Origin: a virus
Taxonomy: Duplodnaviria > Heunggongvirae > Uroviricota > Caudoviricetes
Direction: 5' to 3' (one strand)
IMG/VR virus record: IMGVR_UViG_2851955134_000006
Location: 1 to 12,320 of that record
DNA length: 12,320 bases
Shown: positions 1-12,320 of the stretch, piece after piece
How positions within the stretch are numbered: the stretch's first letter is position 1
Layout: every line of letters starts with the position of its first letter
Notes under the pieces: generated by a model
What the model saw: only the letters and a program-made list of their open reading frames with translations
Database searches by the model: none
Told to the model about the DNA's origin: nothing
Made by a program: the position numbers and the translations under genes

Positions 1-1230
1 ATGAGCAGAGCACTTAACAAACTGAGCGATACACAGCTAAGGAAAATCAACGGCACACCCGCCCAAAAAACAGTCTTTCTTAATGACGGTGGAAACCTGA
101 CCGTCAGGCATTCAACCAGCGGCCTTTTAACCTGGTATTTCACCTACAGGGCCGGAACGGGAAGGGGAGCACGACCGGAACGGATTAAGCTGGGAAATTA
201 TCCTGATCTGAGCCTGAAAGCAGCCAGGGAAAAAGCCGCACAGTGCCGCGCATGGCTGGCTGAGGGGAAAAATCCACGTCATGAGATGAATTACACCGTA
301 CAGGAAGCGTTAAAGCCTGTAACGGTTGGCGATGCGCTCACCTACTGGCTTGAGTCGTACGCAAAGGAAAACCGTGTGGATTATGACCCACTGAAAAAGC
401 GGCTAAATAATCACGTAATACAGCACATTGGCGCTATGCCGCTGGATAAATGCGAGCTACGGCACTGGCTGGCCTGTTTTGATCGGGTGGCAAAGCAAGC
501 CCCTGTTTCCGCCGGATTCCTGCTACAGACATGCAAACAGGCGCTTAAGTTCTGCCGGAAGCGGCGCTATGCAATCAGCAACGTTCTTGATGATATGAGT
601 GTTGCTGACGTTGGGAAAAAACCGGATATAAGTCAGCGTGTCTTAAGTAACAAAGAACTTGGCGAATTATTGCAGGCACTGGACAAAAAAATATTTTCCC
701 CTTACTACGTCGCACTAATCCGCCTCCTGATTGTCTTCGGAGCCAGGACAGTAGAACTGAGGCTATCGGAGATCGGGGAGTGGGATTTTACCGAAATGCT
801 CTGGACCGTTCCGAAGGAGCACAGCAAAACGAAGGTAGCCATATTCCGGCCCATACCGGAAGCGATACTGCCGTTCGTCACGCAGCTGGTGGAGCAGAAC
901 AGGCACACGGGCTTATTGCTGGGGGAAGTGAAACAGGAGGCCAGCGTATCGCAGTATGGAAGATTAGCGCACAGGAGGCTTAAACACCCTCACTGGTCAC
1001 TGCATGACATCCGGCGCACCTTTACAACGATGCTGAACGATTTAGGCGTGGATCCTCACGTCGTGGAGCAGCTTACAGGCCACCAGATGCCAGGAATGCA
1101 GCGAGTTTATAATCATTCCCGTTATCTGGATGCGAAACGCAATGCGCTGGATATGTGGGTGGAGCGGTTGGAGATACTGGCGGGAGCACATGAAAACGTA
1201 ACCACGCTACCAGTAGCCAGAAGAAAATAA
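1..1230 (+). CDS. int: Site-specific tyrosine integrase, P4-like family
   Basis: 409-aa ORF. N-terminal arm-binding-like region (LSDTQLRK...LNDGGNLTVRH...WYFTYR), C-terminal catalytic region with R..HxxR..Y-type signature (LHDIRRTFTT...GHQMPGMQRVYNHSRY). ATG sits at base 1, so the true start could lie upstream of the window. Confidence 0.9.
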   Translation: MSRALNKLSDTQLRKINGTPAQKTVFLNDGGNLTVRHSTSGLLTWYFTYRAGTGRGARPERIKLGNYPDLSLKAAREKAAQCRAWLAEGKNPRHEMNYTVQEALKPVTVGDALTYWLESYAKENRVDYDPLKKRLNNHVIQHIGAMPLDKCELRHWLACFDRVAKQAPVSAGFLLQTCKQALKFCRKRRYAISNVLDDMSVADVGKKPDISQRVLSNKELGELLQALDKKIFSPYYVALIRLLIVFGARTVELRLSEIGEWDFTEMLWTVPKEHSKTKVAIFRPIPEAILPFVTQLVEQNRHTGLLLGEVKQEASVSQYGRLAHRRLKHPHWSLHDIRRTFTTMLNDLGVDPHVVEQLTGHQMPGMQRVYNHSRYLDAKRNALDMWVERLEILAGAHENVTTLPVARRK

Positions 1231-1604
1231 TTTTTTTCGTGTTTTTTCAGTATGCGCATACTGGATAAGTGCACAGATACAACGGCGAACAATGTGAAAC
1301 AACGTGGAACAACCACGAACAAGAGGCCGAAAAATATACAGATTTATAAGTTGCTGATTTTTAATGCTCAACTGGTTTTTTATACATTAGCGAATAACGC
1401 TTTAAATAGTGAGAAAAAAGGCATGAAACGAGATTTTATGCCTTTGCATAATACTGAATTAAAATGTTTTTTATTAAAATTACCCCGTTTCTGTAAAATA
1501 CCCGCCACCAACATTTGCCAACTCTGAATCACCCTGACACAATCAGACACATACCAACGCAATAGAACACGAAATAACTCTTTAAGAAACGAAAGGGGGC
1601 AATA

Positions 1605-1793
1605 GTGTTAAGCACTGATCGCTTTATACGTGAAAAAGAATGCGAAAAGCTAACAGGCCTTAGCCGCTCATGCCGCTACCGCCTGGAAAAGGCCGGACAA
1701 TTCCCATCACGGCGTAAGCTGGGCGGTCGTTCCGTTGGCTGGTCTTTATCCGAAGTTCTGGCATGGAAGGAAAGCTGCGAGGCAGTTCACTAA
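1605..1793 (+). CDS. alpA: AlpA-family (prophage CP4-57 regulatory protein-like) HTH transcriptional regulator / excisionase-like protein
   Basis: 62-aa ORF with GTG start and SD-like aaggggg 6 nt upstream. Sequence pattern TGLSRS..YRL...GQFP...LGGRSVGW..SEV..W is typical of AlpA/Xis-like MerR-type HTH proteins, and its position directly after int is typical of P4-like islands and Gram-negative PICIs. Confidence 0.8.
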   Translation: MLSTDRFIREKECEKLTGLSRSCRYRLEKAGQFPSRRKLGGRSVGWSLSEVLAWKESCEAVH

Positions 1794-1934
1794 AAAGACT
1801 GGCGGCACACAGCCGCCACCCATCCACTAATACAGAGATTTAACCATGAAGACTGGATATACGCCCGAACAGGGGCGGGGCTTCGTTCGGCCTTGTGAAA
1901 CTGAAAAACAACAAAATCGCGGTTTTTCAGACAT

Positions 1935-1962
1935 AAAAAAAGCGGCCCCGATAAGGAGCCGC
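1935..1962 (-). terminator. Putative rho-independent terminator for the minus-strand two-gene module, possibly bidirectional
   Basis: Stem gcggcccc / ggagccgc (8 bp, one mismatch) with loop gataa, preceded on the plus strand by an A7 run, which reads as a T7 tract after the stem on the minus strand; lies about 160 bp downstream of the minus-strand ORF ending at 2121. Confidence 0.45.
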
Positions 1963-2120
1963 CTTTCTGAACAATTAACCTACTGCGCAAAAAATGAATA
2001 TGAGCAGTGGGATTATATCAACCGTGTGGCGAAGCGCCACAATTGCCGGATAACGGGCAAAGAAAAGGCCACCTGTCACGGTGGCCAATGTGATCAGTGT
2101 CCTGGCTTGCTGGTGGATTG

Positions 2121-2312
2121 TCAGCCAGGTGGGCGGTTTTTGTTTGCTTTTAAGCGCCGAGGGTATTTCTCGACAAAAGGATCAAGGGCGAACTTATCAG
2201 GAACTTTAAGATTTTCAGTGCGGGTTAATGCCTTATTTATTTCCCTGCGGGTTTTCTCACGCTGGCGCATGATAATTGATAATGCTTTATTTTGTAGTTC
2301 CTGGTTATTCAT
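2121..2312 (-). CDS. Hypothetical small basic protein (63 aa)
   Basis: ATG at 2312-2310 on the minus strand with SD aaggtga 7 nt upstream; the ORF track extends it to a GTG at 2321. Lys/Arg-rich (MNNQELQNKALSIIMRQREKTRREINKALTRTENLK...). Sits downstream of the RHH gene on the same strand. No recognisable family. Confidence 0.4.
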   Translation of the reverse strand: MNNQELQNKALSIIMRQREKTRREINKALTRTENLKVPDKFALDPFVEKYPRRLKANKNRPPG

Positions 2313-2369
2313 AATTATCACCTTTAAAACAATGCGCCGCAGTACCTCACACCACGGCGCTGATAGTAA

Positions 2370-2549
2370 TTATTCTGATTCTTTGGCCTTGCGGCGCTGG
2401 CGGCGTTTGATCTCGCCTTTTGCGGCAGTAACTAAAAAACCAGCGGTACTTTCGCCAGGTTCTTTAAGTTGCTCAATATCATCCATTACTTCATGTGGGA
2501 TTCTGACAGTTGTCATTTGTGATTTTGCGTTCTTTGCACCAGTTGCCAT
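2370..2549 (-). CDS. Ribbon-helix-helix (CopG/Arc/MetJ-like) DNA-binding protein, candidate repressor
   Basis: 59-aa ORF starting MATGAKNAKSQMTTVRIPHEVMDDIEQL, an RHH-like N-terminal beta-strand motif (TVRIP.E....IE.L). Strong SD aggaga 7 nt upstream of the ATG on the minus strand. The ORF track's 118-aa version begins at an upstream ATG with no RBS. Confidence 0.6.
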   Translation of the reverse strand: MATGAKNAKSQMTTVRIPHEVMDDIEQLKEPGESTAGFLVTAAKGEIKRRQRRKAKESE

Positions 2550-2610
2550 TTCTGGATCTCCTAAAAATTGGTGTATGTCAGTATACGCAAAAAAAATGAT
2601 AAAAAAAGGC

Positions 2611-2661
2611 TTGAAGTGTATTTCACCAGTGAGTAAATTAAAAAGCAAAGGTGAAATACAC
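2611..2661 (+). promoter_or_regulatory. Divergent control region: candidate rightward sigma70 promoter (TTGAAG -N17- TAAATT) overlapped by a perfect 12-bp inverted repeat operator
   Basis: gtgtatttcacc at 2616-2627 and its exact reverse complement ggtgaaatacac at 2650-2661, separated by 22 bp. The left arm lies in the promoter spacer and the right arm just downstream of the -10. Located between the minus-strand RHH gene and the plus-strand early operon. Confidence 0.45.
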
Positions 2662-2742
2662 CTGAAAGAGCAACGCCCCGCAGTGCTCGCAACACATGCA
2701 GGGCGTCTAACCACCAACGATAGCAAGAGTATCGAGGTAGCT

Positions 2743-2946
2743 ATGAGAAATCATACCACACACCCGCAAGGGCGGGACTCGCACAACCTGAATAAATACA
2801 TCTGGCGTTTTATCGCCCTGAGCACGGCACAACCGCGCGTAATTCACATCGAGGCCACCAGCGAACAGGAAGCACGTCAGCAATCTCCTGATGGCTGCGT
2901 GATGGTATTCGCCGCCCGTATTCGTCAGGAGGTGTGCCATGATTAA
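2743..2946 (+). CDS. Hypothetical protein (67 aa), first gene of the early operon
   Basis: ATG at 2743 with SD gaggt 5 nt upstream. The stop overlaps the next gene's start (ATG 2939, TAA 2944-2946), implying translational coupling. It is the C-terminal part of the long open frame 1846..2946, which is otherwise judged non-coding. Confidence 0.5.
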   Translation: MRNHTTHPQGRDSHNLNKYIWRFIALSTAQPRVIHIEATSEQEARQQSPDGCVMVFAARIRQEVCHD

Positions 2947-3307
2947 CCTGTCACTTACCGATCTTAACCGCGTTCAGTTTCGTGAGAAATTTACCGGACA
3001 GCTACTCGTCAATGTGGAGAACGGGCGCATAGTGCGTAATTATCACCTGCCGGATGGTGCAATTGCCGGAAGCGTTGAAGCATTGCTTGAACTGGCGGAA
3101 CGTGCGCGACTGATTAAGCCGTCAACGAACCATCACGATGATGATCTGCATTTTACCGGATGTATGGTGAGTCACTACGAAAACGGCGTCGAGGTATCCT
3201 GCGAACAGCTACGCACTGATTGCTGTTTTGGCACTCTGCCGGAATTTATCGAATTGCTGACCAGTTGCGGATATCAGGTTATTCAGGGGGTGCGCCATGT
3301 GCAATAA
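2939..3307 (+). CDS. Hypothetical protein (122 aa)
   Basis: Strong SD aggaggtg 4 nt upstream of the ATG; coupled to flanking genes. No recognisable family. Confidence 0.6.
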   Translation: MINLSLTDLNRVQFREKFTGQLLVNVENGRIVRNYHLPDGAIAGSVEALLELAERARLIKPSTNHHDDDLHFTGCMVSHYENGVEVSCEQLRTDCCFGTLPEFIELLTSCGYQVIQGVRHVQ

Positions 3308-3749
3308 CATCCGTCCGGACGCAGCCGCCGCCGCACTCACTACTCTGATGCACGCGCTTATTGATATTTCTGTTATTGCAGACATGGCGCATAAGCACGC
3401 CACCAGAGAGACGGAATATACAGGGGAAATAATCCCCCATTCGCTGGCCTACGCACAGCTTACCGCTGATATGGCACTGAATGAAGCCAAAGCCATCCTG
3501 ATTGCTGATTGTGAAAATGGGGGGGTTATGCGTGATGATCGTTTTAATGCCCTGAAACAGGAATTTTCCGGCGTTCCTGATAATGCGGCTGATGCGCTTT
3601 CGTCAATGCCAGAGCTTATTAGAGCGGCTTTTTTCTTACTTTCCACGAGAGAATATAAATCAACGGGGCTTGATGTACTGAATATCGCCGCCGATTATGC
3701 TGATTTCGTGACAGAGGTTATTTTAAGAAAAACGACGGACGGGGATTAA
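3297..3749 (+). CDS. Hypothetical protein (150 aa)
   Basis: ATG overlaps the upstream gene's end, with SD caggggg upstream. Protein-like composition. No recognisable family. Confidence 0.6.
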   Translation: MCNNIRPDAAAAALTTLMHALIDISVIADMAHKHATRETEYTGEIIPHSLAYAQLTADMALNEAKAILIADCENGGVMRDDRFNALKQEFSGVPDNAADALSSMPELIRAAFFLLSTREYKSTGLDVLNIAADYADFVTEVILRKTTDGD

Positions 3750-3750
3750 T

Positions 3751-3984
3751 ATGCGTGATATTTACCTAGAAACAATAGACCGCGCATTTAGTGCCATTGT
3801 TTACGCTGAAGGTATGTACGAAATATTGCAAATGTATCTGGATACATTTGGCGATAATGAGCGTGATGTAAAGAATGCGCGGATTATTAAATCTCTGATA
3901 ACTCTCCTTGAACCTGTAATAACAGAGTTGCAGGAAATAGACCTATTGCACGACAGATATAAAGAACAGCACACCGGAGAATAA
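3751..3984 (+). CDS. Hypothetical protein (77 aa)
   Basis: Starts 2 nt after the upstream stop, with SD gacgggga upstream. No recognisable family. Confidence 0.55.
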   Translation: MRDIYLETIDRAFSAIVYAEGMYEILQMYLDTFGDNERDVKNARIIKSLITLLEPVITELQEIDLLHDRYKEQHTGE

Positions 3985-3989
3985 AAATA

Positions 3990-4289
3990 ATGAAACTTAA
4001 ATATTCTGGCTTTACTGCCAGCGGCCCCGCTCGGCCTGAAATCCGCCCCGGCGATATTTTCAAAGATAACTACGGCGGCACGGTAACAATTAAAAGCGTG
4101 GAGGAACGTCGCGTAACTTACCGCCGTGATGGCTACGAATATGACTGCGTGATGCCTGTTTATCAGTTCCGGCGTGATTTTTCTCTGGTACAGAACGCAA
4201 CACGCGGTAAGCCCACCAGCAGGGAAAAAGCACGGGAAAATATTAAGAAAATAAAAAGCATGCTCAGCGCATCCAGAGGTAAAAAATGA
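3990..4289 (+). CDS. Hypothetical protein (99 aa), basic C-terminus
   Basis: SD ccggaga upstream; its stop overlaps the start of the replicase gene (ATGA at 4286-4289). Confidence 0.55.
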   Translation: MKLKYSGFTASGPARPEIRPGDIFKDNYGGTVTIKSVEERRVTYRRDGYEYDCVMPVYQFRRDFSLVQNATRGKPTSREKARENIKKIKSMLSASRGKK

Positions 4290-5692
4290 AACTGGCACCG
4301 AACGTAAAACTGTTACCGAAAGATAAACACACTGAGGCGGTTATTTTTGCGGGTGATAATGCTCACTCCTTTGCAGAACATTACATGATTGCACAGGCCA
4401 AAAAAGCAGGCGATCCCATCCCTCCGGTTTACCTGGGCCGTTATCAGTTAAGCGAACTGGACAACTTACAGATTGTTGATGAAGGACGATACAGGGCAAA
4501 GGTCATACGCGCCGGAAACCTGGACGATATGCAGATGCTGACCATTGCCACCAAACTGGCGATCGCAGGTGTCCAGGAAGCACGGTTACTTTCAGAGAAT
4601 TTCGAACTGCTGGAGGACTGGAGCGAGCAACTACCGCGGCTTAAAGAAACCTGGGAACGCGGGGAAAGTCTGGTCATGAATGGTGGAAAGCGAAAAATCA
4701 CACTTCCCATCTCATGGGGTTCTGAGGGATTCGACGCGCAGCAAAGCTACGTAATTAAGGGGCTTATTCCGGCTGAGTCATTATGCAGCACCTACGGGGC
4801 CAGCGGTTCTTATAAATCGTTCCTGGCTATTTCCTGGTCGTGCCATGTTGCCACAGGTATGGCATGGGGAGGCCGCAGGGTAAGTAAGGGCGCTGTTATC
4901 TATATCGCTGGCGAAGGCAGTATGGGCGTAAAACGCCGCGTTAAGGCGTGGGAGATAACCCATGACAAGGTGGTTACAGATTTGTGCATCATTAACGCGC
5001 CGGTATTCCCCGCATCGCCTGACTATGTGGAGCAGGTTATCAGGACTGCCGGACTTGTTAAGAGCAGAACGGGCGAAAATGTGCCGCTGATTGTGATCGA
5101 CACGCTGGCCCGTTGCTTTGGTGGGAATGATGAAAATGATTCCCGTGATATGGGCGCATTTATCCAGGGGTGTGACGCGATAAAGCAGGCTACAGGGGCC
5201 ACGGTGCTGGTGGTTCACCATTCCGGCAAGGATGAAACAAAGGGGGCGCGTGGTTCCAGCGCATTCCGTGCCGCGCTTGATGCAGAGTACCGAATCAGCC
5301 GGGAAAATTCAGACGTTACAGCACTGGTGGCGGCGTGTACGAAGATGAAGGACGCAGAGGAGCCAAAAGAAAGCGCATACGACCTTAAAAGCGTGGAGGT
5401 GTTCACCGATACAGATGGCGAAGAAATTGTGTCTATGGTGGTGATTGACGTTCCCCGCGCCCCTGCTGAACTGGAGCGCATCGAGGAAGCAGGCAACAAA
5501 TCGGAGAATCACGCCGCGCTATGGCAGTGCATCAGAACGCGGACGGCACACAAAGAGCCATGCACTATCGCCCTTCTCCGCGACGATATGAAAAAGCTGG
5601 GGTATGAGATGAAGCACTTCCGGCGCTGGCTGTCCAAGCTGGAAAAAGACGGCGTGATTTGTGTCGATGGGGATGATGTTTACCCACTGTAA
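4286..5692 (+). CDS. Replication initiator ATPase / helicase, RecA-like P-loop NTPase (RepA/AAA_25-like), satellite replicase
   Basis: 468-aa ORF with a P-loop-like segment (LIPAESLCSTYGASGSYKSFLAISW), a Walker B-like hhhhD segment (PLIVIDTLARCFG) and a VVHHSGKDETKG segment typical of RepA/DnaB-type ATPases. Immediately followed by an iteron array. Confidence 0.8.
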   Translation: MKLAPNVKLLPKDKHTEAVIFAGDNAHSFAEHYMIAQAKKAGDPIPPVYLGRYQLSELDNLQIVDEGRYRAKVIRAGNLDDMQMLTIATKLAIAGVQEARLLSENFELLEDWSEQLPRLKETWERGESLVMNGGKRKITLPISWGSEGFDAQQSYVIKGLIPAESLCSTYGASGSYKSFLAISWSCHVATGMAWGGRRVSKGAVIYIAGEGSMGVKRRVKAWEITHDKVVTDLCIINAPVFPASPDYVEQVIRTAGLVKSRTGENVPLIVIDTLARCFGGNDENDSRDMGAFIQGCDAIKQATGATVLVVHHSGKDETKGARGSSAFRAALDAEYRISRENSDVTALVAACTKMKDAEEPKESAYDLKSVEVFTDTDGEEIVSMVVIDVPRAPAELERIEEAGNKSENHAALWQCIRTRTAHKEPCTIALLRDDMKKLGYEMKHFRRWLSKLEKDGVICVDGDDVYPL

Positions 5693-5895
5693 AAAGTGGG
5701 TAGTAAAAGTGGGGAGAGTGGGGAATTTAACAAAATTGAAACATAATTCCCCACTTTCCCACCTGTATACATCCAAAAAAGTGGGGAGCAAAAAACGCAA
5801 TGAAAAACAAAGCATTAGATTCACTCAAAAAACGAAGTGGGGAGCAAGTGGGGAATTTAAAAAGTGGGGAGCAAAAGTGGGGAGTGGTGGGGAAT
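5693..5895. repeat. Iteron array, putative origin of replication of the element
   Basis: At least eight direct copies plus one inverted copy of the core AGTGGGGA, in two flavours (AGTGGGGAGCA and AGTGGGGAATTT), at roughly 5708, 5717, 5780, 5836, 5847, 5863 and 5876, with a variant at 5695 and the inverted copy at 5746-5757. AT-rich spacers. Sits directly downstream of the replicase gene. Confidence 0.7.
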
Positions 5896-5938
5896 GAATA
5901 AAAACCGAACAGCAGGACAAAATACAGAAGGTGAATTT

Positions 5939-6262
5939 ATGAACACTGAAATTGAAACACTGAGCATATCAACTGCCCTTCCTGGCTGGTGGGCTAAGTT
6001 CAAAGACGACGACGGCACGGAATGGTATAGCCCAATTGCTGCATGGGCGCTTTGTGAGATCCACCATTTCGGCACCGGAGATACTTACCGCGAAATCTTA
6101 CCCGTGCTGACCAGTGAGGTGGGCGTGAGTCCGCATAGTCCTGATGAGGGAATGTTCGAGTGCCTTTATCTGCCAGATAAGAAGTTTGTTCACTGCGGTG
6201 AGTCATGGGTATTTGCCTGGTATCCGGTTAACGACAGCAGCAATAGCGGTACTCTGGAGTAA
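5939..6262 (+). CDS. Hypothetical protein (107 aa; alternative start at ATG 5894 gives 122 aa)
   Basis: SD aggtga 4 nt upstream of ATG 5939. The longer ORF-track version starts inside the iteron array and is less likely. Confidence 0.5.
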   Translation: MNTEIETLSISTALPGWWAKFKDDDGTEWYSPIAAWALCEIHHFGTGDTYREILPVLTSEVGVSPHSPDEGMFECLYLPDKKFVHCGESWVFAWYPVNDSSNSGTLE

Positions 6263-6265
6263 ATC

Positions 6266-6508
6266 ATGAAGGTAAACCACAAAAAGACAGATCACCGCGC
6301 CATTGACCTTACAGAGCACTGGCTGAGGGTGGCGATAAAAATCATCGACCGCAACGCGGGAGAAGGATACGCGAAGGAACATCCCGAACTGATTAGCGCA
6401 TTCATGACAACGGCAGCTGCAAACTTTTCCACGCTGACAGAACGGGAGATTGCCGAAGCGCAACAGGTGACAACCATCAACGTTAAAACCAGTGAGGTGG
6501 AATCATGA
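6266..6508 (+). CDS. Hypothetical protein (80 aa)
   Basis: SD ggag 6 nt upstream; its stop overlaps the SSB start (ATGA). Confidence 0.5.
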   Translation: MKVNHKKTDHRAIDLTEHWLRVAIKIIDRNAGEGYAKEHPELISAFMTTAAANFSTLTEREIAEAQQVTTINVKTSEVES

Positions 6509-6915
6509 CAGCACAGATAGCGGCTTACGGGCGGCTGGTGGCTGACCCACAGTTAAAGACCACCAGCAAGGGTACACAAATGGCGATGGCGAGTATGGCT
6601 GTCCCCCTGCCGTGCAGCCAGGCAGATGACGGAACGGCGACGATGTGGTTATCCGTCCTGGCGTTTGGCAGACAGGCCGACGCACTGGCAAAACACCAGA
6701 AAGGCGAACTGGTGAGCGTGGCGGGTAACATGCAGGTGAGCCAGTGGACCGGACAGAACGGGGAAACGCGGCAGGGCTGGCAGGTTATCGCAGACAGCGT
6801 AATCAGTGCGCGGACAGTGCGACCGGGCGGAAAAACACGCAAAACCACAGGCACACAGGGTAATCAGCCACCAGCGGGAGACGATGACCCTTACGGTGAT
6901 GATATTCCGTTCTGA
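6505..6915 (+). CDS. ssb: Single-stranded DNA-binding protein (short, phage/plasmid-type SSB)
   Basis: 136-aa ORF with an OB-fold-like N-terminal region, a Gly/Gln/Pro-rich linker and the hallmark acidic SSB C-terminal tail DDDPYGDDIPF. SD gaggtgg upstream. Confidence 0.8.
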   Translation: MTAQIAAYGRLVADPQLKTTSKGTQMAMASMAVPLPCSQADDGTATMWLSVLAFGRQADALAKHQKGELVSVAGNMQVSQWTGQNGETRQGWQVIADSVISARTVRPGGKTRKTTGTQGNQPPAGDDDPYGDDIPF

Positions 6916-6925
6916 GGGGGTGACG

Positions 6926-7198
6926 ATGGTACATGACCGGATAGCGGAGGAACTGGAGGCGAAAGGATTTTACCGGAGGGCGGCCGCGCGATGGGGTGAA
7001 GTTATGTGGCTGGTGAGCACTGACAAGGAGCGCGAACAGGTGGCAATGCGACGGCTGGAATGTTCCCGGAAGGCACAGAGGCCACCGGAGCCACCGGATG
7101 ATTTAGGCGCTCTGAAAAGGTCAGTTAATCGCACTGAAAAACAAATGGGGATAGCTGGTATTGGCAAAGCAATATGGCGCAACTACCCGCAGAAGTGA
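6926..7198 (+). CDS. PerC-family transcriptional regulator-like protein (90 aa)
   Basis: ATG at 6926 with SD gaggggg upstream. The N-terminal segment MVHDRIAEELEAKGFYRRAAARWGEVMWL matches the PerC/Pch-family pattern (LE.KG.YRRAA.RW) as recalled from memory. The ORF track's longer version overlaps ssb and lacks an RBS. Confidence 0.5.
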   Translation: MVHDRIAEELEAKGFYRRAAARWGEVMWLVSTDKEREQVAMRRLECSRKAQRPPEPPDDLGALKRSVNRTEKQMGIAGIGKAIWRNYPQK

Positions 7199-7205
7199 GC
7201 ACACA

Positions 7206-7227
7206 GCCGGAGCAATCCGGCTTTTTT
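7206..7227 (+). terminator. Rho-independent terminator ending the replication/regulation operon
   Basis: Stem gccgga / tccggc, loop gcaa, then TTTTTT; 8 nt after the PerC-like stop codon. Confidence 0.6.
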
Positions 7228-7233
7228 ACGCCT

Positions 7234-7275
7234 AAAAAAAGCCCGATAAGGTCACAGGGGGCTTATCGGGCTTTT
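7234..7275. terminator. Second hairpin, likely a bidirectional terminator
   Basis: A7 run, then 10-bp perfect stem gcccgataag / cttatcgggc with an 11-nt loop, then tttt; it gives a T7 tract when read on the minus strand. Confidence 0.5.
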
Positions 7276-7354
7276 GCATATGAGGTTTTTTTTGGTGCAC
7301 TGACACACATGAACGGGATAATCATTTCATAATTTGCAACACAACTCAACATCA

Positions 7355-7403
7355 TTGCACAAAATGCAATCATGATTATAATCAGAGCTGGATGAACATC
7401 CAG
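7355..7403 (+). promoter_or_regulatory. Putative sigma70 promoter of the head operon with overlapping dyad symmetries
   Basis: TTGCAC at 7355-7360, a 16-nt spacer, then a consensus TATAAT at 7377-7382. The -10 is embedded in the perfect 12-bp palindrome tgattataatca (7373-7384), and an inverted repeat ctggatg-aa-catccag (7388-7403) sits at the predicted transcription start. Confidence 0.5.
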
Positions 7404-7438
7404 TTATGATTTTTTAAGTCAAAGAGGAATTTCTGACT

Positions 7439-7645
7439 ATGGCAGAAGAGAAAAAAGGCGGGGTGACGGTCTACATAAGCCCCGACATCGTGGAGGCGCT
7501 CAAGGAACGCCACCAGCAGAATGTAAAAGCAGGCATTGCGGCAGGACTTGATCCGCTGGCGATGGTTGAGCCGTCAACAGGCTGGCAGGTGCGCACCTAT
7601 TTACGTGCGGCGCTGGGTATCAATCAGGTTCACGGAGGTGAATAA
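7439..7645 (+). CDS. Hypothetical protein (68 aa), first gene of the head module
   Basis: SD aagaggaa upstream; its stop overlaps the capsid gene start (TAATG). Confidence 0.5.
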   Translation: MAEEKKGGVTVYISPDIVEALKERHQQNVKAGIAAGLDPLAMVEPSTGWQVRTYLRAALGINQVHGGE

Positions 7646-8700
7646 TGACAGGCAAAGCAACGGCACTTACAACTAACCAGCTTTTCGCGTACCTGAATCG
7701 CGGGGATATTGCGGATTTTAAATTCAGCCCTCTGTTTACCACGCTGTTTTTCCCGAACGTGGCGACCTTCAACACCCAAAACATCATGCTGGACACCCTG
7801 GACATTGAAGAGGTTACGATGTCAGCGTTCTGTTCGCCTATGGTGGGTAGTCAGGTCCAGCGCGATAAAGGGTACGAAACCAGCACGATTAAACCCGGCT
7901 ACATGAAGCCAAAGCACGAAATCGATCCAACAAAGACCATCATGCGCATGGCTGGAGAAGATCCGGCACAGCTTAACGATCCAACTTACCGCCGTATGCG
8001 CCTGATTACTGGCAACATGCGCCGCCAGATAAACGCCATTAAGGCGCGCGTGGAATGGCTGGCGGTGAATGCGGTAACGACCGGAAAAAACATCATTGAG
8101 GGCGAAGGCATAGAACGCTATGAAATCGACTGGAAAATACCGGAAAACTGCATCATACAGCAGGCCAGTGGTAAAAAATGGTCCCAGCAGGATAAAGACA
8201 TGCACGACCCAATCTATGACATCGAGCTTTATGCTGATCAGGCAGGTTGCCCCGCCAACGTCATGATTATGGGCGGTGAGGTATGGCGCACATTACGCAG
8301 CTTTAAAAAATTCCGTGAACTGTACGATCTTTCCCGTGGGTCAGAATCCGCCGCCGAGCTGGCCTGTAAAAACCTGGGCGAAGTGGTGAGCTTTAAAGGC
8401 TATCTTGGTGATCTGGCCCTTATCGTCTATTCCGGCAAATACACTGACAGCGACGGCACCGAAAAATATTTCCTTGAGCCTGATTTGCTGGTCCTGGGTA
8501 ACACCAACAATAAAGGGCTGGTGGCCTATGGTGCGATTATGGATCAGGAAGCGGTAAGAACGGGCGCAACGCAAAACATGTACTACCCGAAAAACTGGAT
8601 TGAGGACGGCGATCCGGCGATTGAGTACGTGCAGACGCACAGCGCACCGCAGCCGGTACCGGCAGATATTCGCAAATTTGTTACCGTCAAAATTGCTTAA
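7645..8700 (+). CDS. Major capsid protein, lambda gpE family
   Basis: 351-aa ORF with SD ggaggtg upstream. Blocks of similarity to lambda gpE as recalled from memory: DFKFSPLF..LFF near the N-terminus, PGYMKPKHEIDP (lambda PGYVKPKHEVNP), DPTYRRMRLITGNMR (lambda DPAYRRRRIIMQNMR), and C-terminal YPKNWIEDGDPA...SAP...FVTVKIA (lambda YPKNWVTTGDPA...SAP...FVSVQLA). Confidence 0.9.
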   Translation: MTGKATALTTNQLFAYLNRGDIADFKFSPLFTTLFFPNVATFNTQNIMLDTLDIEEVTMSAFCSPMVGSQVQRDKGYETSTIKPGYMKPKHEIDPTKTIMRMAGEDPAQLNDPTYRRMRLITGNMRRQINAIKARVEWLAVNAVTTGKNIIEGEGIERYEIDWKIPENCIIQQASGKKWSQQDKDMHDPIYDIELYADQAGCPANVMIMGGEVWRTLRSFKKFRELYDLSRGSESAAELACKNLGEVVSFKGYLGDLALIVYSGKYTDSDGTEKYFLEPDLLVLGNTNNKGLVAYGAIMDQEAVRTGATQNMYYPKNWIEDGDPAIEYVQTHSAPQPVPADIRKFVTVKIA

Positions 8701-8711
8701 CGGGGGATTCT

Positions 8712-9047
8712 ATGGACGCTCCATACATTGAGTTATTTTCAGGCAGCCAGCAGGTATCCACGACGCTGGTACATTTTGCCGCTGATGCTGGCGTTATTCA
8801 GGAATTTACCCCTCTGATGCTGGCAGACAATGGCGAGTTTAAGGCGTGGGATGGTCAGGAATCTGGCAAAGCTGTTTATCTGACTTCGCACCCCGTGGAC
8901 ACGTCAAAGCAGAAATCAGCACAGTGTTACAAAACGGGGATATTCAATATTGCCGCCGTTAACTGGCCTGATAGCGTCGACACCGATGCGAAAAAATGCG
9001 CCGCCTTTGCGGGTTCCGGCGTATCCGTTCAGCCGCTGGCCCGATAA
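8712..9047 (+). CDS. Head decoration protein, lambda gpD family
   Basis: 111-aa ORF with SD cggggga upstream. Similarity to lambda gpD as recalled from memory: TPLMLADNGEFKAWDG (lambda TPLMLDTSSRKLVAWDG), YKTGIF (lambda YKSGTF), and C-terminal KKCAAFAGSGVSV (lambda KKRTAFAGTAISIV). Confidence 0.8.
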   Translation: MDAPYIELFSGSQQVSTTLVHFAADAGVIQEFTPLMLADNGEFKAWDGQESGKAVYLTSHPVDTSKQKSAQCYKTGIFNIAAVNWPDSVDTDAKKCAAFAGSGVSVQPLAR

Positions 9048-9059
9048 GCAGGGGGAACG

Positions 9060-9473
9060 ATGGCAACGAATGAAAGTATCATGACGCTACCGCTGGCGAG
9101 TAAATTTAAAGCCGAAGCGCGGGCAATGGCTGACAGAGGTTTATCAACCTACGAGGCCATACACCGACTAAACAAACTGGAAGAACAGGACAAGCCGCGC
9201 GCTGATGCGATTATGGCGCTTCATGAATCTGACGACTACCAGCCGCTGTTACGTGCAATGGCTAACGTGCCTTGTATCGATGTTGGTACGGCTAAAAGCA
9301 TCCTTAGCATGACCATAGAGCAGGAACGCCCGAAGGTTGCACCAGAGCTTACTTCAGCCTTTGAAAACTTTATGGACATGCACAGCCCGAAAGCCGTATC
9401 AGCTGGCATGGCATACGATGGCAGAACCCCGGGCGATGACGGCGACATCGATCGCATACTGAAAACCATCTGA
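9060..9473 (+). CDS. Hypothetical protein (137 aa), last gene of the head module
   Basis: SD agggggaa upstream; followed 7 nt later by a terminator. No recognisable family. Confidence 0.55.
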   Translation: MATNESIMTLPLASKFKAEARAMADRGLSTYEAIHRLNKLEEQDKPRADAIMALHESDDYQPLLRAMANVPCIDVGTAKSILSMTIEQERPKVAPELTSAFENFMDMHSPKAVSAGMAYDGRTPGDDGDIDRILKTI

Positions 9474-9479
9474 GACAAG

Positions 9480-9502
9480 GCCGGAGAAATCCGGCTTTTT
9501 TT
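9480..9502 (+). terminator. Rho-independent terminator ending the head operon
   Basis: Stem gccgga / tccggc, loop gaaa, then TTTTTTT. Nearly identical to the terminator at 7206-7227. Confidence 0.65.
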
Positions 9503-9507
9503 GCGGG

Positions 9508-9575
9508 TCCTTTCCGGCATGTGGACCCGTTACGGGGCGTCGACCTCGCGCGTTTTCGCTATTTATGACGTTTTT
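9508..9575 (+). other. Lambda-like cohesive-end site (cos-1: cosQ-like flank, cosN, start of cosB)
   Basis: CGTTACGGGGCGTCGACCTCGCGCGTTTTCGCTATTTATGACGTTTTTCCG closely matches the lambda cos region as recalled (…GGGCGGCGACCTCGCGGGTTTTCGCTATTTATGAAAATTTTCCGG…). The predicted 12-nt cohesive end GGGCGTCGACCT (9535-9546) differs from lambda GGGCGGCGACCT at one position. Located about 90 bp upstream of a Nu1-like gene on the same strand. Confidence 0.75.
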
Positions 9576-9635
9576 CCGTGAAGGTGACACCACCACCACT
9601 TGATTAACATTTAATCGCATGATTAAGGTAACATT

Positions 9636-10076
9636 ATGATTGATAAAGCTTGTTTTGTGAGTCAGCAGGAAATAGCAGAACATTTCAAGGTCAACAGAAC
9701 CACTATTCGCGCATGGACCAAACAGGGCATGCCATATCTTGATGCGGATCGCGGAAAGTCCGGCGGTTATCACATCGGACACACATTATTCTGGTGCATG
9801 GGTAAAAGCCATCTTGATGCTATTGAGTACCACGGAGAAACCAGCGCACTGGAAAAGATTATGGTTGCCAGGTTGATTGCGTCAGAGCGCGACGAGTATT
9901 TCAGTGAAGAAACAGAACAGCGATTTGATGAAGGTTTGCATATTTACGGCTATTCACCGGAAGATGTGAGCAAGGCACGAAATAAAATGGCTGGCTTTCT
10001 GGCTGGGTGGCGTCATGCCGTAAGCGTTCGCCGTGCCAGCATGGAACAATCAGTCGTTACAGAACAGCAAAGTTAA
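9636..10076 (+). CDS. Nu1-like terminase small subunit homolog (N-terminal winged HTH); candidate packaging-redirection (Rpp-like) protein
   Basis: 146-aa ORF. N-terminus FVSQQEIAEHFKVNRTTIRAWTKQGMPYLDADRGKSGG resembles lambda Nu1 (QLADIFGASIRTIQNWQEQGMPVLRGGGKG, recalled from memory). The C-terminal region is shorter and unrelated to the Nu1 gpA-binding region. No large terminase gene follows. Confidence 0.7.
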   Translation: MIDKACFVSQQEIAEHFKVNRTTIRAWTKQGMPYLDADRGKSGGYHIGHTLFWCMGKSHLDAIEYHGETSALEKIMVARLIASERDEYFSEETEQRFDEGLHIYGYSPEDVSKARNKMAGFLAGWRHAVSVRRASMEQSVVTEQQS

Positions 10077-10079
10077 AAA

Positions 10080-10260
10080 TCACTTTCTGTTACGCCATCA
10101 AATACGCAATACAACAACCACGTATTTTTTTAAAACTATTTGATTCAATTAGCATTTTTTTATTTTTAGCATCAAAAAAACACTATCAGGTTGTTGTATT
10201 GCTCTTTATTTTTACTTAGTTATCAAATGGATATGACAAACAATTAAACAACAACCTCCC
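10080..10260. repeat. AT-rich region with a 14-bp perfect inverted repeat and short direct repeats
   Basis: gcaatacaacaacc at 10106-10119 and its reverse complement ggttgttgtattgc at 10189-10202 (69 bp apart), a third partial copy aacaacaacc at 10247-10256, and direct repeats of ttagcat in a T-rich context between the arms. Confidence 0.45.
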
Positions 10261-10272
10261 TCTAAAAAAGCT

Positions 10273-10345
10273 CATAAATAGCGAAAAACCGCGAGGTCGA
10301 CGCCCCGTAACGGGCCATAATTCCAGGAAGGACCCGACGACACCA
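10273..10345 (-). other. Second lambda-like cos site (cos-2), inverted relative to cos-1
   Basis: The reverse complement of 10273-10345 reads ggtgtcgtcgggtccttcctggaattatggCCCGTTACGGGGCGTCGACCTCGCGgtttttcgctatttatga. A 25-bp core is identical to cos-1, with flanking similarity on both sides (gggtcctttccgg versus gggtccttcctgg; cgttttcgctatttatga versus gtttttcgctatttatga). Cohesive-end equivalent at 10294-10305. Confidence 0.7.
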
Positions 10346-10369
10346 GACTATCAGAGCGATGGGCGCACA

Positions 10370-10651
10370 ATGACAGAAGCCGAACTACTGGGATTAATCC
10401 GCCGCGTTACCGGAATCAGCCAGCAGCATGACGAACAGGCCACGCAGCCGGACAGCGTGACCGCCGAAAATTACGCGTGTGTTGTTGCTGAGGTGATGCG
10501 CCGTGATGGTATTGAGCTTAACGGCGTGGATATGCGCAACATACGAACCAGAGTCCTTGAGTTGCTGGCATACCGTCGCCGTTCTCAACAACGGAGGGAG
10601 AGCGCGAAAAATACTTACCAGTGGAAGAAGCCGGAACGACTGCGTACGTAA
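10370..10651 (+). CDS. Hypothetical protein (93 aa)
   Basis: ORF with a weak SD; followed about 70 bp later by a plus-strand hairpin with a T tract. Arg-rich C-terminus. No recognisable family. Confidence 0.4.
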   Translation: MTEAELLGLIRRVTGISQQHDEQATQPDSVTAENYACVVAEVMRRDGIELNGVDMRNIRTRVLELLAYRRRSQQRRESAKNTYQWKKPERLRT

Positions 10652-10721
10652 TACGTACGGACATCGAGATAAAGACGGTTTAACCATCCATTAAAAATCG
10701 ACGTGATTTTGTGCTTTCCGG

Positions 10722-10745
10722 ATGACGTGGCCAACGTCATTTTTT
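10722..10745 (+). terminator. Putative rho-independent terminator
   Basis: Stem atgacgt / acgtcat, loop ggcca, followed by ttttt. Confidence 0.5.
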
Positions 10746-10967
10746 AGCGAAAAATTCTGATTAAGGTCATTGGCTGAATGGTCATAATGACCACTCCTAC
10801 AGAACAGGTAAAGCCCACCAGCCTGATTAAAGGTTAACCGGAAAAAAAGCCAGGTATCAATCTCGATATGTGGATCCCCATATCGACAGCAACGCCCCCT
10901 TAAAATTACCCGCCTTTATATTTCTTGTGCCTATTTGTTCCACGTTGTTTCATACAGTGCACCGATC

Positions 10968-10991
10968 GGTGTAGTTAATGGTGTAGTTAAT
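10968..10991. repeat. Perfect tandem duplication of a 12-bp unit (ggtgtagttaat x2), preceded by the palindrome accgatcggt
   Basis: Read directly: 10968-10979 and 10980-10991 are identical; the palindrome is at 10961-10970. Confidence 0.6.
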
Positions 10992-11084
10992 TTGCGATTT
11001 TTGGCACTTTTTTTAGTGTAAGTTGTTTAATTAAATCAATACGTTATTGAAAATAAGTTATAGATATATCCCATTTATGACTCC

Positions 11085-12320
11085 TTATTTCTGCCAGGCA
11101 AGTTGATAAAGCATGAGTGCCAACGTTTTGACCCCTTCGGCAAGGTCGGTAATATTGGTGCGTTCCGCCGGGTTATGGCTGATCCCATTGATGCTGGGAA
11201 TGAAAATCATGCAGGTTGGTACGCGAGGCGCGAAAATTTGCGCGTCGTGCCCGGCACCACTGTGCATCACCCGGTAATTCAGTTTTTCGCTTTCACACAA
11301 TTCTGTCAGGGTGGCGACCAGGTCCTTATTCATCGGCACGGGTTCTTCGTCCATCCATAAATCGATATCAATACCAATGTCCATTTCATCGCAAATCGCC
11401 CGCATGTCGTTTTCTAACTGCTGAGTGAAATCGCGCAGCACGGCGGCGTCGGTATGACGACAATCAATGGTGAATGTGGTTTTACCCGGCACCACATTCA
11501 CCGTATTCGGGCGCGGCTCCACCTTACCAAAGGTCAGCACCAGCGGGTCGCCCATCTTTTTCGCTTTTTCGATCGACTGATGGCAAATGCGACTGAAAGC
11601 GTAAACTGTATCACGACGGTAACCCATCGGCGTGGTGCCTGCATGGTTTGATTCGCCGTTCAGCGTCACCGTATAGCGACGTTGCCCGACAATTGCATTC
11701 ACCACGCCAATTGATTGCCCATTACTTTCCAGCACACAGCCCTGTTCGATATGCAGTTCGACAAAGGCTTTAATATCCTGACGCGGAGTTAGCGGGGCGT
11801 CCGGCAGAGTAAATCCGCAAGCCTTCATCGCATCGACAAAACTATTTCCTTTGGCATCACAGATATTCCGCACGTCGTCAGGATTCGCCAGCCCAAAGAT
11901 ATTTTTACTGCCCCAGAAAACATACGGGAAGCGGCTGCCTTCTTCTTCCGCCATCGCCACCACTTCAACCGTACGTAACGGCGCGCCGTATTGCCTTTTC
12001 AACCAGTCAATTGCCAGCCACGCCGCCAGCGCGCCGAATTGCCCGTCGAGGTTACCGCCGTTAACCACGGTATCGATATGCGAACCGCTCAGAACCACTT
12101 CCTGTGGATATTCGGTGCCACTCAGGCGACCGTATAAATTCCCCACTTCATCGAAACGTGTTTCCAGCCCGCTTGCTGCCATTCTTTTTTTAAATTGCTG
12201 CTGGGTTTCCAGCCATTCCGGCGAATAAAGTAAACGGGTCATCCCACCCGTTGGGTCAGCGCCAAAAGAGGAAAGCCAGGGCAGCGTTTCTTCTATGGCT
12301 TGACGGAAATGTGTAATCAT
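11085..12320 (-). CDS. allC: Allantoate amidohydrolase (M20 peptidase / hydantoinase-carbamoylase family), host chromosomal gene
   Basis: Complete 411-aa ORF with ATG at 12320-12318. M20-type metal-binding motifs (SGSHIDTV, DGQFG, EEEGSRF, HNPAE). Full-length match to my recollection of enterobacterial AllC (MITHFRQAIEETLPWLSSFGADP...). Confidence 0.8.
   Translation of the reverse strand: MITHFRQAIEETLPWLSSFGADPTGGMTRLLYSPEWLETQQQFKKRMAASGLETRFDEVGNLYGRLSGTEYPQEVVLSGSHIDTVVNGGNLDGQFGALAAWLAIDWLKRQYGAPLRTVEVVAMAEEEGSRFPYVFWGSKNIFGLANPDDVRNICDAKGNSFVDAMKACGFTLPDAPLTPRQDIKAFVELHIEQGCVLESNGQSIGVVNAIVGQRRYTVTLNGESNHAGTTPMGYRRDTVYAFSRICHQSIEKAKKMGDPLVLTFGKVEPRPNTVNVVPGKTTFTIDCRHTDAAVLRDFTQQLENDMRAICDEMDIGIDIDLWMDEEPVPMNKDLVATLTELCESEKLNYRVMHSGAGHDAQIFAPRVPTCMIFIPSINGISHNPAERTNITDLAEGVKTLALMLYQLAWQK

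Follow-up and report, generated by a model that had tools for sequence, protein, structure and literature searches.

A PchE-type PerC gene as optional cargo on the replication module of a predicted EcCICFT073-like phage satellite

The gene at positions 6926–7198 of the stretch of DNA analysed here (12,320 nucleotides, positions 1 to 12,320 of the IMG/VR record IMGVR_UViG_2851955134_000006; referred to below as the window) encodes a genuine full-length PerC-family regulator of 90 residues that is closest to PchE. Comparison of related loci showed that PerC is optional cargo on the replication module of the islands that carry it and that it is independent of the type of late module that follows. 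The explanation that we favour, and that we consider probable, is that the gene is PchE-branch cargo of a PICI of the EcCICFT073 type which acts in trans outside the island and is not a switch of the head promoter. The finding of such a gene is already known: it is annotated in RefSeq as 'PerC family transcriptional regulator', there are published studies of its orthologue PchE, and variants of PerC were reported as accessory genes of Escherichia coli PICIs in 2018 (PMC6092414), which removes the novelty implied by an earlier reading of the sequence alone. Furthermore, PerC is listed in a PICI review (PMC13612085), and PerC-family regulators have been described as common in Gram-negative PICIs (Pick et al., 2025; PMC11773190). 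The contribution of this study is the comparative evidence on the link between the gene and the modules on either side of it.

The perC gene and its product

The perC gene lies on the + strand, with its ATG at 6926 and its TGA at 7196–7198, and starts 10 nt 3' of the ssb gene of the same strand (6505–6915; Pfam SSB, E = 3.8e-16), which is directly upstream. A Shine–Dalgarno-like GAGGGGG, read from the sequence at 6914–6920, ends 5 nt 5' of the ATG and overlaps the ssb stop codon (TGA, 6913–6915); the same motif precedes perC in Sp7 of E. coli O157:H7 Sakai and in strain LH50-c. A longer version of 130 residues with a GTG start (6806–7198) was considered and rejected. Because this longer frame overlaps ssb out of frame and the homologues all begin with MVHD or MIHD, position 6926 is taken as the true start.

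Profile searches gave a full-length match of the protein to PF06069 (PerC; E = 5.6e-39), in which residues 1–89 align with positions 1–89 of the 90 positions of the profile and the score of 132.8 bits lies above the gathering cutoff of 22.6 bits, as well as a match to PHROG 994 (E = 1.6e-42). The sequence-only reading had recognized the family correctly; however, it had placed the likeness in the N-terminus, whereas the profile covers practically the whole protein. Searches of Pfam, NCBIfam and PHROGs returned PerC-type families only and no phage late-regulator family. The size of about 90 residues is that of the family, and the conserved N-terminal motif is present as A7, L10, E11, G14, R17, R18, A19, R22, W23 and M27; these columns are invariant in an alignment with PchE, PchD, the PerC of EPEC and a 104-residue plasmid PerC, and nearly invariant among 32 diverse PerC alleles.

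The closest named relative is PchE (ECs_1588) of E. coli O157:H7 Sakai, which has the same length of 90 residues and is 76% identical over 89 residues, with the greatest divergence in residues 59–90. The PerC of EcCICFT073 (WP_000233305, 82 residues) is 73% identical. Identity falls to 44% for the 104-residue plasmid PerC, which adjoins an NleG-like gene, to 43% for the EPEC PerC encoded 3' of perB on an EAF-type plasmid, and to 35% for PchD. The protein is assigned to the PchE group (group 3) because its identity to PchE is 76%, compared with 35–44% for PchD, the EPEC PerC and the 104-residue PerC; its position after ssb in a PICI is also that of PchE. The EPEC PerC (perABC of pEAF) and PchA, PchB and PchC of EHEC share with it the Pfam family, the size class and the motif LE-KG-YRRAA-RW...M, but their genes belong to a virulence plasmid or to lambdoid prophages rather than to a satellite, and they activate LEE1.

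The ratio dN/dS was 0.31 over 44 distinct alleles of 90 codons from related loci (0.22 for codons 1–58 and 0.36 for codons 59–90), and the protein is therefore under purifying selection. The open reading frame was intact and preceded by a good Shine–Dalgarno sequence in 79 of the 87 loci examined. One truncated allele (u35) was seen among the PerC loci, and databases also hold truncated or partial PerC entries.

An AlphaFold2 model of the protein (pLDDT 86) contains five helices, and fold searches with this model returned TPR-like helical repeats; the first three helices are predicted to form a TPR-like bundle. A TPR-like match is generic for a helical bundle of 50 residues. No classical DNA-binding fold was detected in the fold searches of the predicted structure. 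To our knowledge, structures and binding partners have yet to be reported for PerC-family proteins. In addition, the protein resembles the ANR (Aar-type) proteins, which are likewise small helical proteins of mobile elements. The match to the NCBIfam model NF033650 (ANR_neg_reg) reached 12.6 bits (E = 0.091) against a cutoff of 32 bits, and sub-threshold matches over residues 7–52 recurred in 30 of the 32 PerC alleles, with a best E value of 5.4e-5. ANR proteins, the model of which has 54 positions, are shorter than PerC and do not include its C-terminal half; the profile scores thus suggest a remote resemblance rather than membership.

The carrier island

The genes of the window run in one direction, from the integrase (1–1230) through the AlpA regulator (1605–1793; Pfam, E = 5e-18), a DUF4222 protein, a primase/helicase (AAA_25, Pfam; 3990–5692), a field of iterons, ssb and perC to the head genes. 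The origin-like iteron field at 5690–5903 consists of AAGTGGGGA repeats in both orientations (direct-repeat families D1–D3 and inverted pairs I1–I9 in a repeat search) and lies 3' of the primase/helicase gene, where the origins of Gram-negative PICIs have been described, namely 3' of pri (PMC6092414). The iterons open a post-origin block that has two small open reading frames ahead of ssb and closes with PerC (orf80–ssb–perC). The first gene of the head operon (7439–7645, + strand; PHROG 3255) encodes 68 residues and is followed by a major capsid gene of the lambda gpE type (7645–8700, + strand), a head decoration gene and genes for a 137-residue protein, a 146-residue HTH protein and a 93-residue protein. 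The 146-residue protein is 89% identical to RppA (c1503) of EcCICFT073. The island is followed by allC on the opposite strand, and it is found with 95% identity in E. coli LH50-c between allE and allC.

No tail or lysis family was found among the profile-scanned open reading frames, and none is annotated in the near-identical island of LH50-c. The codirectional int, alpA and primase genes, the iterons 3' of pri, the lack of tail and lysis families and the RppA protein are those of a Gram-negative PICI of the EcCICFT073 type, for which a size of 10–15 kb and an Rpp packaging redirector are further defining features. Judged by its gene content, the carrier appears to be an EcCICFT073-like phage satellite; induction and transfer driven by a helper are known from EcCICFT073, the induction, replication and transfer of which have been demonstrated with lambda and phage 80 (PMC6092414, PMC6739421).

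EcCICFT073 has the same gene order as the island of the window, its perC lying 3' of ssb and 5' of the capsid gene c1499, and its intergenic region between PerC and the head genes is about 95% identical. It differs in its integration site and in its PerC allele, which is shorter (82 residues) and has a different C-terminus. Sakai Sp7, which corresponds to CP-933C and to the cf-PICI EcCIEDL933 of the cf-PICI papers, is a 15 kb element that contains an integrase, a primase, ssb and pchE, followed by an HK97-type head and packaging module. It has the int–alpA–DUF4222–primase type in common with the island of the window, and its pchE also lies directly after ssb, with the same Shine–Dalgarno sequence and the same first terminator. 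However, the HK97-type head and packaging module of Sp7 is complete and is preceded by an inserted gene for 74 residues, and Sp7 is integrated at roxA/phoQ, whereas islands of the type found in the window lie at allE/allC.

Matches to the gene by blastn were present in 878 of the 5,426 complete E. coli genomes (about 16%), with up to six per genome, in commensal and pathogenic strains alike; an identical protein was encoded in an IMG/VR contig. Among 80 PchE-type loci of IMG/VR, ssb was the upstream neighbour in 72. Downstream, 38 loci had the 74-residue gene, 20 had the 68-residue gene with the gpE-type module, 17 had an HK97 capsid gene and three had neither module. A PerC homologue was found in only two of 50,697 records of sequenced phage genomes; PerC is therefore a trait of satellites, plasmids and islands rather than of phages, and its function cannot be read from a phage context. 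A scan of one genome per species with narrow peptide patterns yielded five loci, in E. albertii, Kluyvera, Shimwellia and two Enterobacter species. In these loci PerC follows the primase, with ssb in between in four of the five (three of the four when Kluyvera, Shimwellia and Enterobacter are taken alone), and no homologues of the capsid genes of the window were found downstream of PerC in any of the five.

Relation of PerC to the head-operon promoter

A terminator scan of the + strand predicted nothing from 5600 to 7198, and a strict consensus scan of the same strand gave no sigma-70 promoter in the interval ahead of perC (5600–6926). Directly after perC, the terminator scan gave an intrinsic terminator at 7205–7227 on the + strand (AGCCGGAGCAATCCGGCT followed by T6), which is the last block that the window and Sp7 have in common in the alignment and which directly follows the ssb stop codon in islands without PerC. 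A second hairpin (inverted repeat I1) at 7237–7275, within an element delimited as 7237–7279, has perfect arms of 14 nt, an A-run 5' and a T-run 3', and resembles a bidirectional terminator. The earlier placement of perC as the last gene of the replication operon, just before the head operon, fits this anatomy, with ssb 10 nt upstream, two terminators and the head genes 3'.

The promoter-like region of the head operon (7350–7382, + strand) comprises TTGCAC at 7355–7360, a spacer of 16 nt and TATAAT at 7377–7382; it was read by eye, and its score lies below the threshold of the strict consensus scan. A palindrome, CATCATTGCA-N5-TGCAATCATG at 7350–7374 (inverted repeat I6), covers its −35 element. 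A further inverted repeat with 15 nt arms and a T-run (I2; 7380–7416, + strand) coincides with or follows the predicted +1 and precedes the ribosome-binding site of the 68-residue gene; it resembles a terminator, occurs with and without PerC upstream and could be either an operator or a third terminator. In five gpE-type islands, which are too alike for footprinting (mean column identity of 88%), the second hairpin is kept, with changes only in its loop, and the 7380–7416 repeat is invariant. The AT content of the neighbourhood is highest at 7201–7400, where GC amounts to 41.5%, compared with 52–58% in flanking windows. No Rfam family matched the window at gathering thresholds; permissive scans of the intergenic region between PerC and the head genes, and of an insert of 170 bp found in islands without PerC, gave only matches far below threshold, which were taken as chance. 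On these features, perC is probably co-transcribed with ssb, and the head promoter is presumably active.

The sequence-only reading had suggested that the protein might be the late-gene activator of the satellite, and the comparison of loci rested on the premise that a cognate activator and its head promoter should co-occur. The exact 33 nt hairpin of the head promoter was found in 44 IMG/VR contigs, 41 of which contained enough upstream sequence. PerC lay upstream in 23 of these 41 loci; in the other 18, the interval from ssb to the promoter contained none. In these 18, the terminator pair comes directly after the ssb stop codon, either alone or together with a non-coding insert of about 170 bp; since the 18 loci carry 16 distinct intervening sequences, they do not represent a single clone. 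For 16 of them, no PerC was present anywhere in the available sequence of the locus, and the other two have their PerC, a divergent one, at the far right of the island. Conversely, identical PerC alleles precede both types of head module: allele u4 is followed by the gpE-type module in 17 loci and by the HK97-type module in two, u5 in one and two loci, respectively, and u21 in one of each. At three loci PerC was present and a head module was absent. The window and Sp7 align strongly up to and including ssb, perC and the first terminator, and all similarity ends immediately afterwards. This point is the module junction, and beyond it the two control regions of the head genes bear no relation to each other. 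Apart from a duplicated terminator, no shared motifs were found between the gpE-type and HK97-type control regions in this alignment and in a read-through of Sp7.

An early-to-late cascade in which PerC turns on the head promoter at about 7355–7403 has some anatomical appeal. PerC is the last early gene and is followed by two terminators and then by a promoter-like region with a palindrome and an inverted repeat to which a regulator could bind, its family is named as a transcriptional activator, and profile searches identified no other obvious late regulator between the origin and the head genes. However, the suggestion was not borne out by the loci described above, in which the identical hairpin occurs without PerC after ssb and the same alleles stand before modules with dissimilar upstream regions or before none; PerC also occurs in islands without head genes, including EcCIMP1 (PMC11773190). 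The head promoter does not have the appearance of an activator-dependent promoter, because it combines a consensus −10 element with a spacer of 16 nt. Furthermore, the predicted structure of PerC is without a DNA-binding fold, no likeness in sequence or fold to antiterminators of the lambda Q type or to zinc-finger activators of the P2/P4 Ogr/Delta type was found, the head promoter is not kept together with PerC, and the capsid genes of EcCICFT073 are dispensable for transfer (PMC6092414). A role as late-gene activator is thus regarded as very improbable. More generally for the scanning of genomes, a regulator should not be taken to control a promoter because its gene lies just 5' of it.

Possible roles of PerC

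The alternative in the sequence-only reading, a regulator of targets on the host chromosome, has published support from relatives of the protein. Overexpression of pchE reduced csgD expression and curli, biofilm formation and adhesion to HEp-2 cells and increased flagellar expression (Andreozzi et al.; PMC6265319, PMC7369912); these phenotypes came mostly from overexpression on plasmids, the effect of a pchE deletion was small and the steady-state level of pchE mRNA in uninduced O157 was low (PMC6265319, PMC7369912). In Citrobacter rodentium, LEE1 is silenced by EcCIMP1_025, a PICI PerC of more distant relationship (PMC11773190). Like the gene studied here, it is a PerC-family accessory regulator on a Gram-negative PICI with a weak similarity to ANR, and it is reportedly about 40% identical to the proteins of EcCICFT073 and EcCIEDL933; unlike the island of the window, EcCIMP1 has no structural genes, and LEE1 repression has been demonstrated for its PerC (PMC11773190).

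Activation of LEE1 or ler should not be assumed for the present protein, since PchD, PchE and the PICI PerC proteins have been reported to lack this activity (PMC6265319, PMC11773190). The PerC-like genes of EcCIEDL933 and EcCICFT073 were inactive on LEE1 fusions in earlier work (PMC11773190), and PchE-type proteins had no effect on such fusions in the work of Porter (2005), according to PMC11773190 and, for the lack of LEE1 activation, also to PMC6265319. PchA activates LEE1 by relieving silencing by H-NS, StpA and Hha, and no co-precipitation of Pch with H-NS was found (Fukui et al.; PMC4764244). Because PchE-type proteins were without effect on LEE1 fusions, as far as that work is cited, the anti-silencing activity of PchA may not transfer to this branch of the family, and because Pch and H-NS did not co-precipitate (PMC4764244), a mechanism through protein contact is unproven.

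Under the host-directed reading, perC would be read together with ssb and translated from the Shine–Dalgarno sequence at the end of that gene, and the transcript would end at the hairpins at 7205–7279. By analogy with Pch and ANR proteins, the small, all-helical product would then alter nucleoprotein or regulator complexes in trans. Candidate targets would be the silencing complexes of H-NS, StpA and Hha, or partner regulators, at promoters that lie beyond the island. The expected outcome would be a shift in the programmes of host surface and behaviour, such as curli, flagella, adhesion and, where present, LEE, and PerC would be neither needed for nor matched to the head-operon promoter of the satellite. 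It is from its relatives that this allele is presumed to act on the host as they do, and the host of the window may be without known target genes. If the host-directed reading is true, a very common family of satellites can alter the adhesion, biofilm and motility programmes of its hosts, and entry of a satellite into a pathogen could dampen or tune virulence. Effects of satellites with PchE-type genes on their hosts are already recognised in the literature; the comparative data sharpen the question, in that a dispensable gene keeps a constant position at the end of the replication block.

The weak phenotypes of pchE deletion (PMC6265319), together with the presence/absence polymorphism among near-identical islands and the truncated forms mentioned above, would also be expected of a neutral passenger or a decaying remnant with no present function. 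We consider this hardly credible in view of the selection on the protein, strongest in its N-terminal half, the integrity of the gene and its Shine–Dalgarno sequence in most loci, the near-invariance of the N-terminal motif among the 32 alleles and the strong phenotypes on overexpression (PMC7369912, PMC11773190). The same purifying selection is compatible with a modulator of the satellite cycle or of the helper, of which effects on virulence would be side effects: PerC, induced along with the replication genes, could serve as a general anti-silencer that frees AT-rich regions of the satellite or its helper from H-NS, or as an ANR-like anti-activator that binds a helper or host regulator for timing. 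The fixed place of the gene by ssb in islands of Escherichia, Kluyvera, Shimwellia and Enterobacter, its frequency in commensal as well as pathogenic E. coli, the AT-rich stretch at 7201–7400 and the near-absence of the family from phage genomes are in line with such a role, as is the recurrent resemblance to ANR proteins, since both ANR and Pch proteins touch H-NS-based silencing (PMC4764244; ANR work as cited in PMC11773190). Indeed, the constant placement in the replication block, also in genera without LEE, would fit a role in the satellite cycle equally well. However, PerC is dispensable, in that many otherwise identical islands are without it, and when each post-origin gene of EcCICFT073 was cloned and overexpressed, only c1503 (rppA) interfered with lambda (Fillol-Salom et al., 2019; PMC6739421). 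The level of pchE mRNA also falls on SOS induction in O157, although the strain is without the helper of the island (PMC6265319; bioRxiv 10.1101/2022.09.08.507074). On balance, a modulator of this kind is judged to be rather unlikely.

In a stronger version, the satellite PerC proteins would not primarily be regulators of virulence but would form a general part of the induced replication operon, with the task of remodelling xenogeneic silencing. On induction, a TPR- or ANR-like adaptor would loosen H-NS/StpA/Hha complexes or sequester a regulator, so that AT-rich satellite or helper DNA would be expressed, and the effects on curli, flagella and LEE would be collateral. Such a general role is regarded as improbable, although it would explain why the gene keeps its place next to ssb in genera that have no LEE and why the family is nearly absent from true phage genomes.

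Distribution of the PerC family and its position in the islands

PchD, a group 2 PerC homologue, is encoded on SpLE1 of Escherichia coli O157:H7 Sakai (L005:44877-45146), a tellurite/urease island that is not a PICI, where its gene directly follows ibrA (PAPS-reductase-like) and ybdM. With pchD on SpLE1, the family is carried by at least four kinds of element: plasmids, prophages, PICIs and large islands. Homologues of the window PerC were found in 140 plasmid records and in 878 of 5,426 E. coli genomes, whereas only two of 50,697 deposited phage genomes contained a detectable one, these being a 1.5-kb fragment and the 89-kb phage phi456. The PerC family is thus characteristic of islands and plasmids and not of isolated phages.

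The PerC gene can also sit in a different cargo slot. Two of the compared islands, L121 and L122, have no PerC after ssb; instead, a divergent PerC (49% identical) is located at their right-hand end, ∼3.5 kb past the head promoter (L121:10749-10979; L122:73-303). Most islands that lack PerC after ssb have a non-coding insert of ∼170 bp between two terminators, as at about 10960-11130 of L095, and it is also present in L096, L102-L104, L106, L109, L110, L113, L115, L121-L123, L125 and L126. This insert starts GC-rich and then becomes AT-rich, with a small hairpin and a T-run, and it had no match in Rfam.

The interval between PerC and the head operon

A 74-aa gene of the ECs_1589 type has been inserted after PerC and ahead of the head operon in Sakai Sp7 (L004:32169-32393) and at L012:7926-8150 and L013:7925-8149. 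Among the 80 IMG/VR loci surveyed, all with a PchE-type gene, 38 have this insertion. No convincing family was found for this gene, which is flanked on either side by a copy of the terminator AGCCGGAGCAATCCGGCTTTTT, and the gene and both terminator copies form a moron-like cassette.

The head-operon control region of the window (7321-7416) contains three repeat elements, namely a 19-nt direct repeat (7321-7339 and 7351-7369, 30 bp apart), a palindrome CATCATTGCA-N5-TGCAATCATG covering the −35 element, and an inverted repeat with 15-nt arms and a T-run at or after +1. All three are without variation among the five closely similar gpE-type islands aligned over this region, and their presumed binding factor is not linked to PerC. 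The HK97-type and gpE-type late modules are mutually unrelated, yet both start directly after a terminator-like hairpin with a T-run, situated just 5' of the first late gene (L004:32647-32685 in Sp7; 7386-7416 in the window). The occurrence of this hairpin ahead of both modules raises the possibility that late expression requires antitermination or read-through control.

Replication origin and other genes of the island

Directly 3' of the primase/helicase gene of the window, a dense iteron field (5690-5903) contains at least seven copies of AAGTGGGGA in both orientations, as well as a 46-nt imperfect direct repeat with a spacing of 168 bp; this field is the expected PICI replication origin. 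The 146-aa HTH protein (9636-10076) shares 89% identity with EcCICFT073 RppA (c1503), which retargets the small terminase of the helper, and owing to this likeness the island should depend on, and interfere with, cos helpers of the lambda/phage 80 type. The 137-aa protein (9060-9473) belongs to PHROG 1999, has a further match in the C-terminal portion of PHROG 53 (head maturation protease; positions 496-567 of 583), and may be a Nu3-like scaffold; its counterpart in strain LH50-c (97% identical) is named a head-tail connector in RefSeq.
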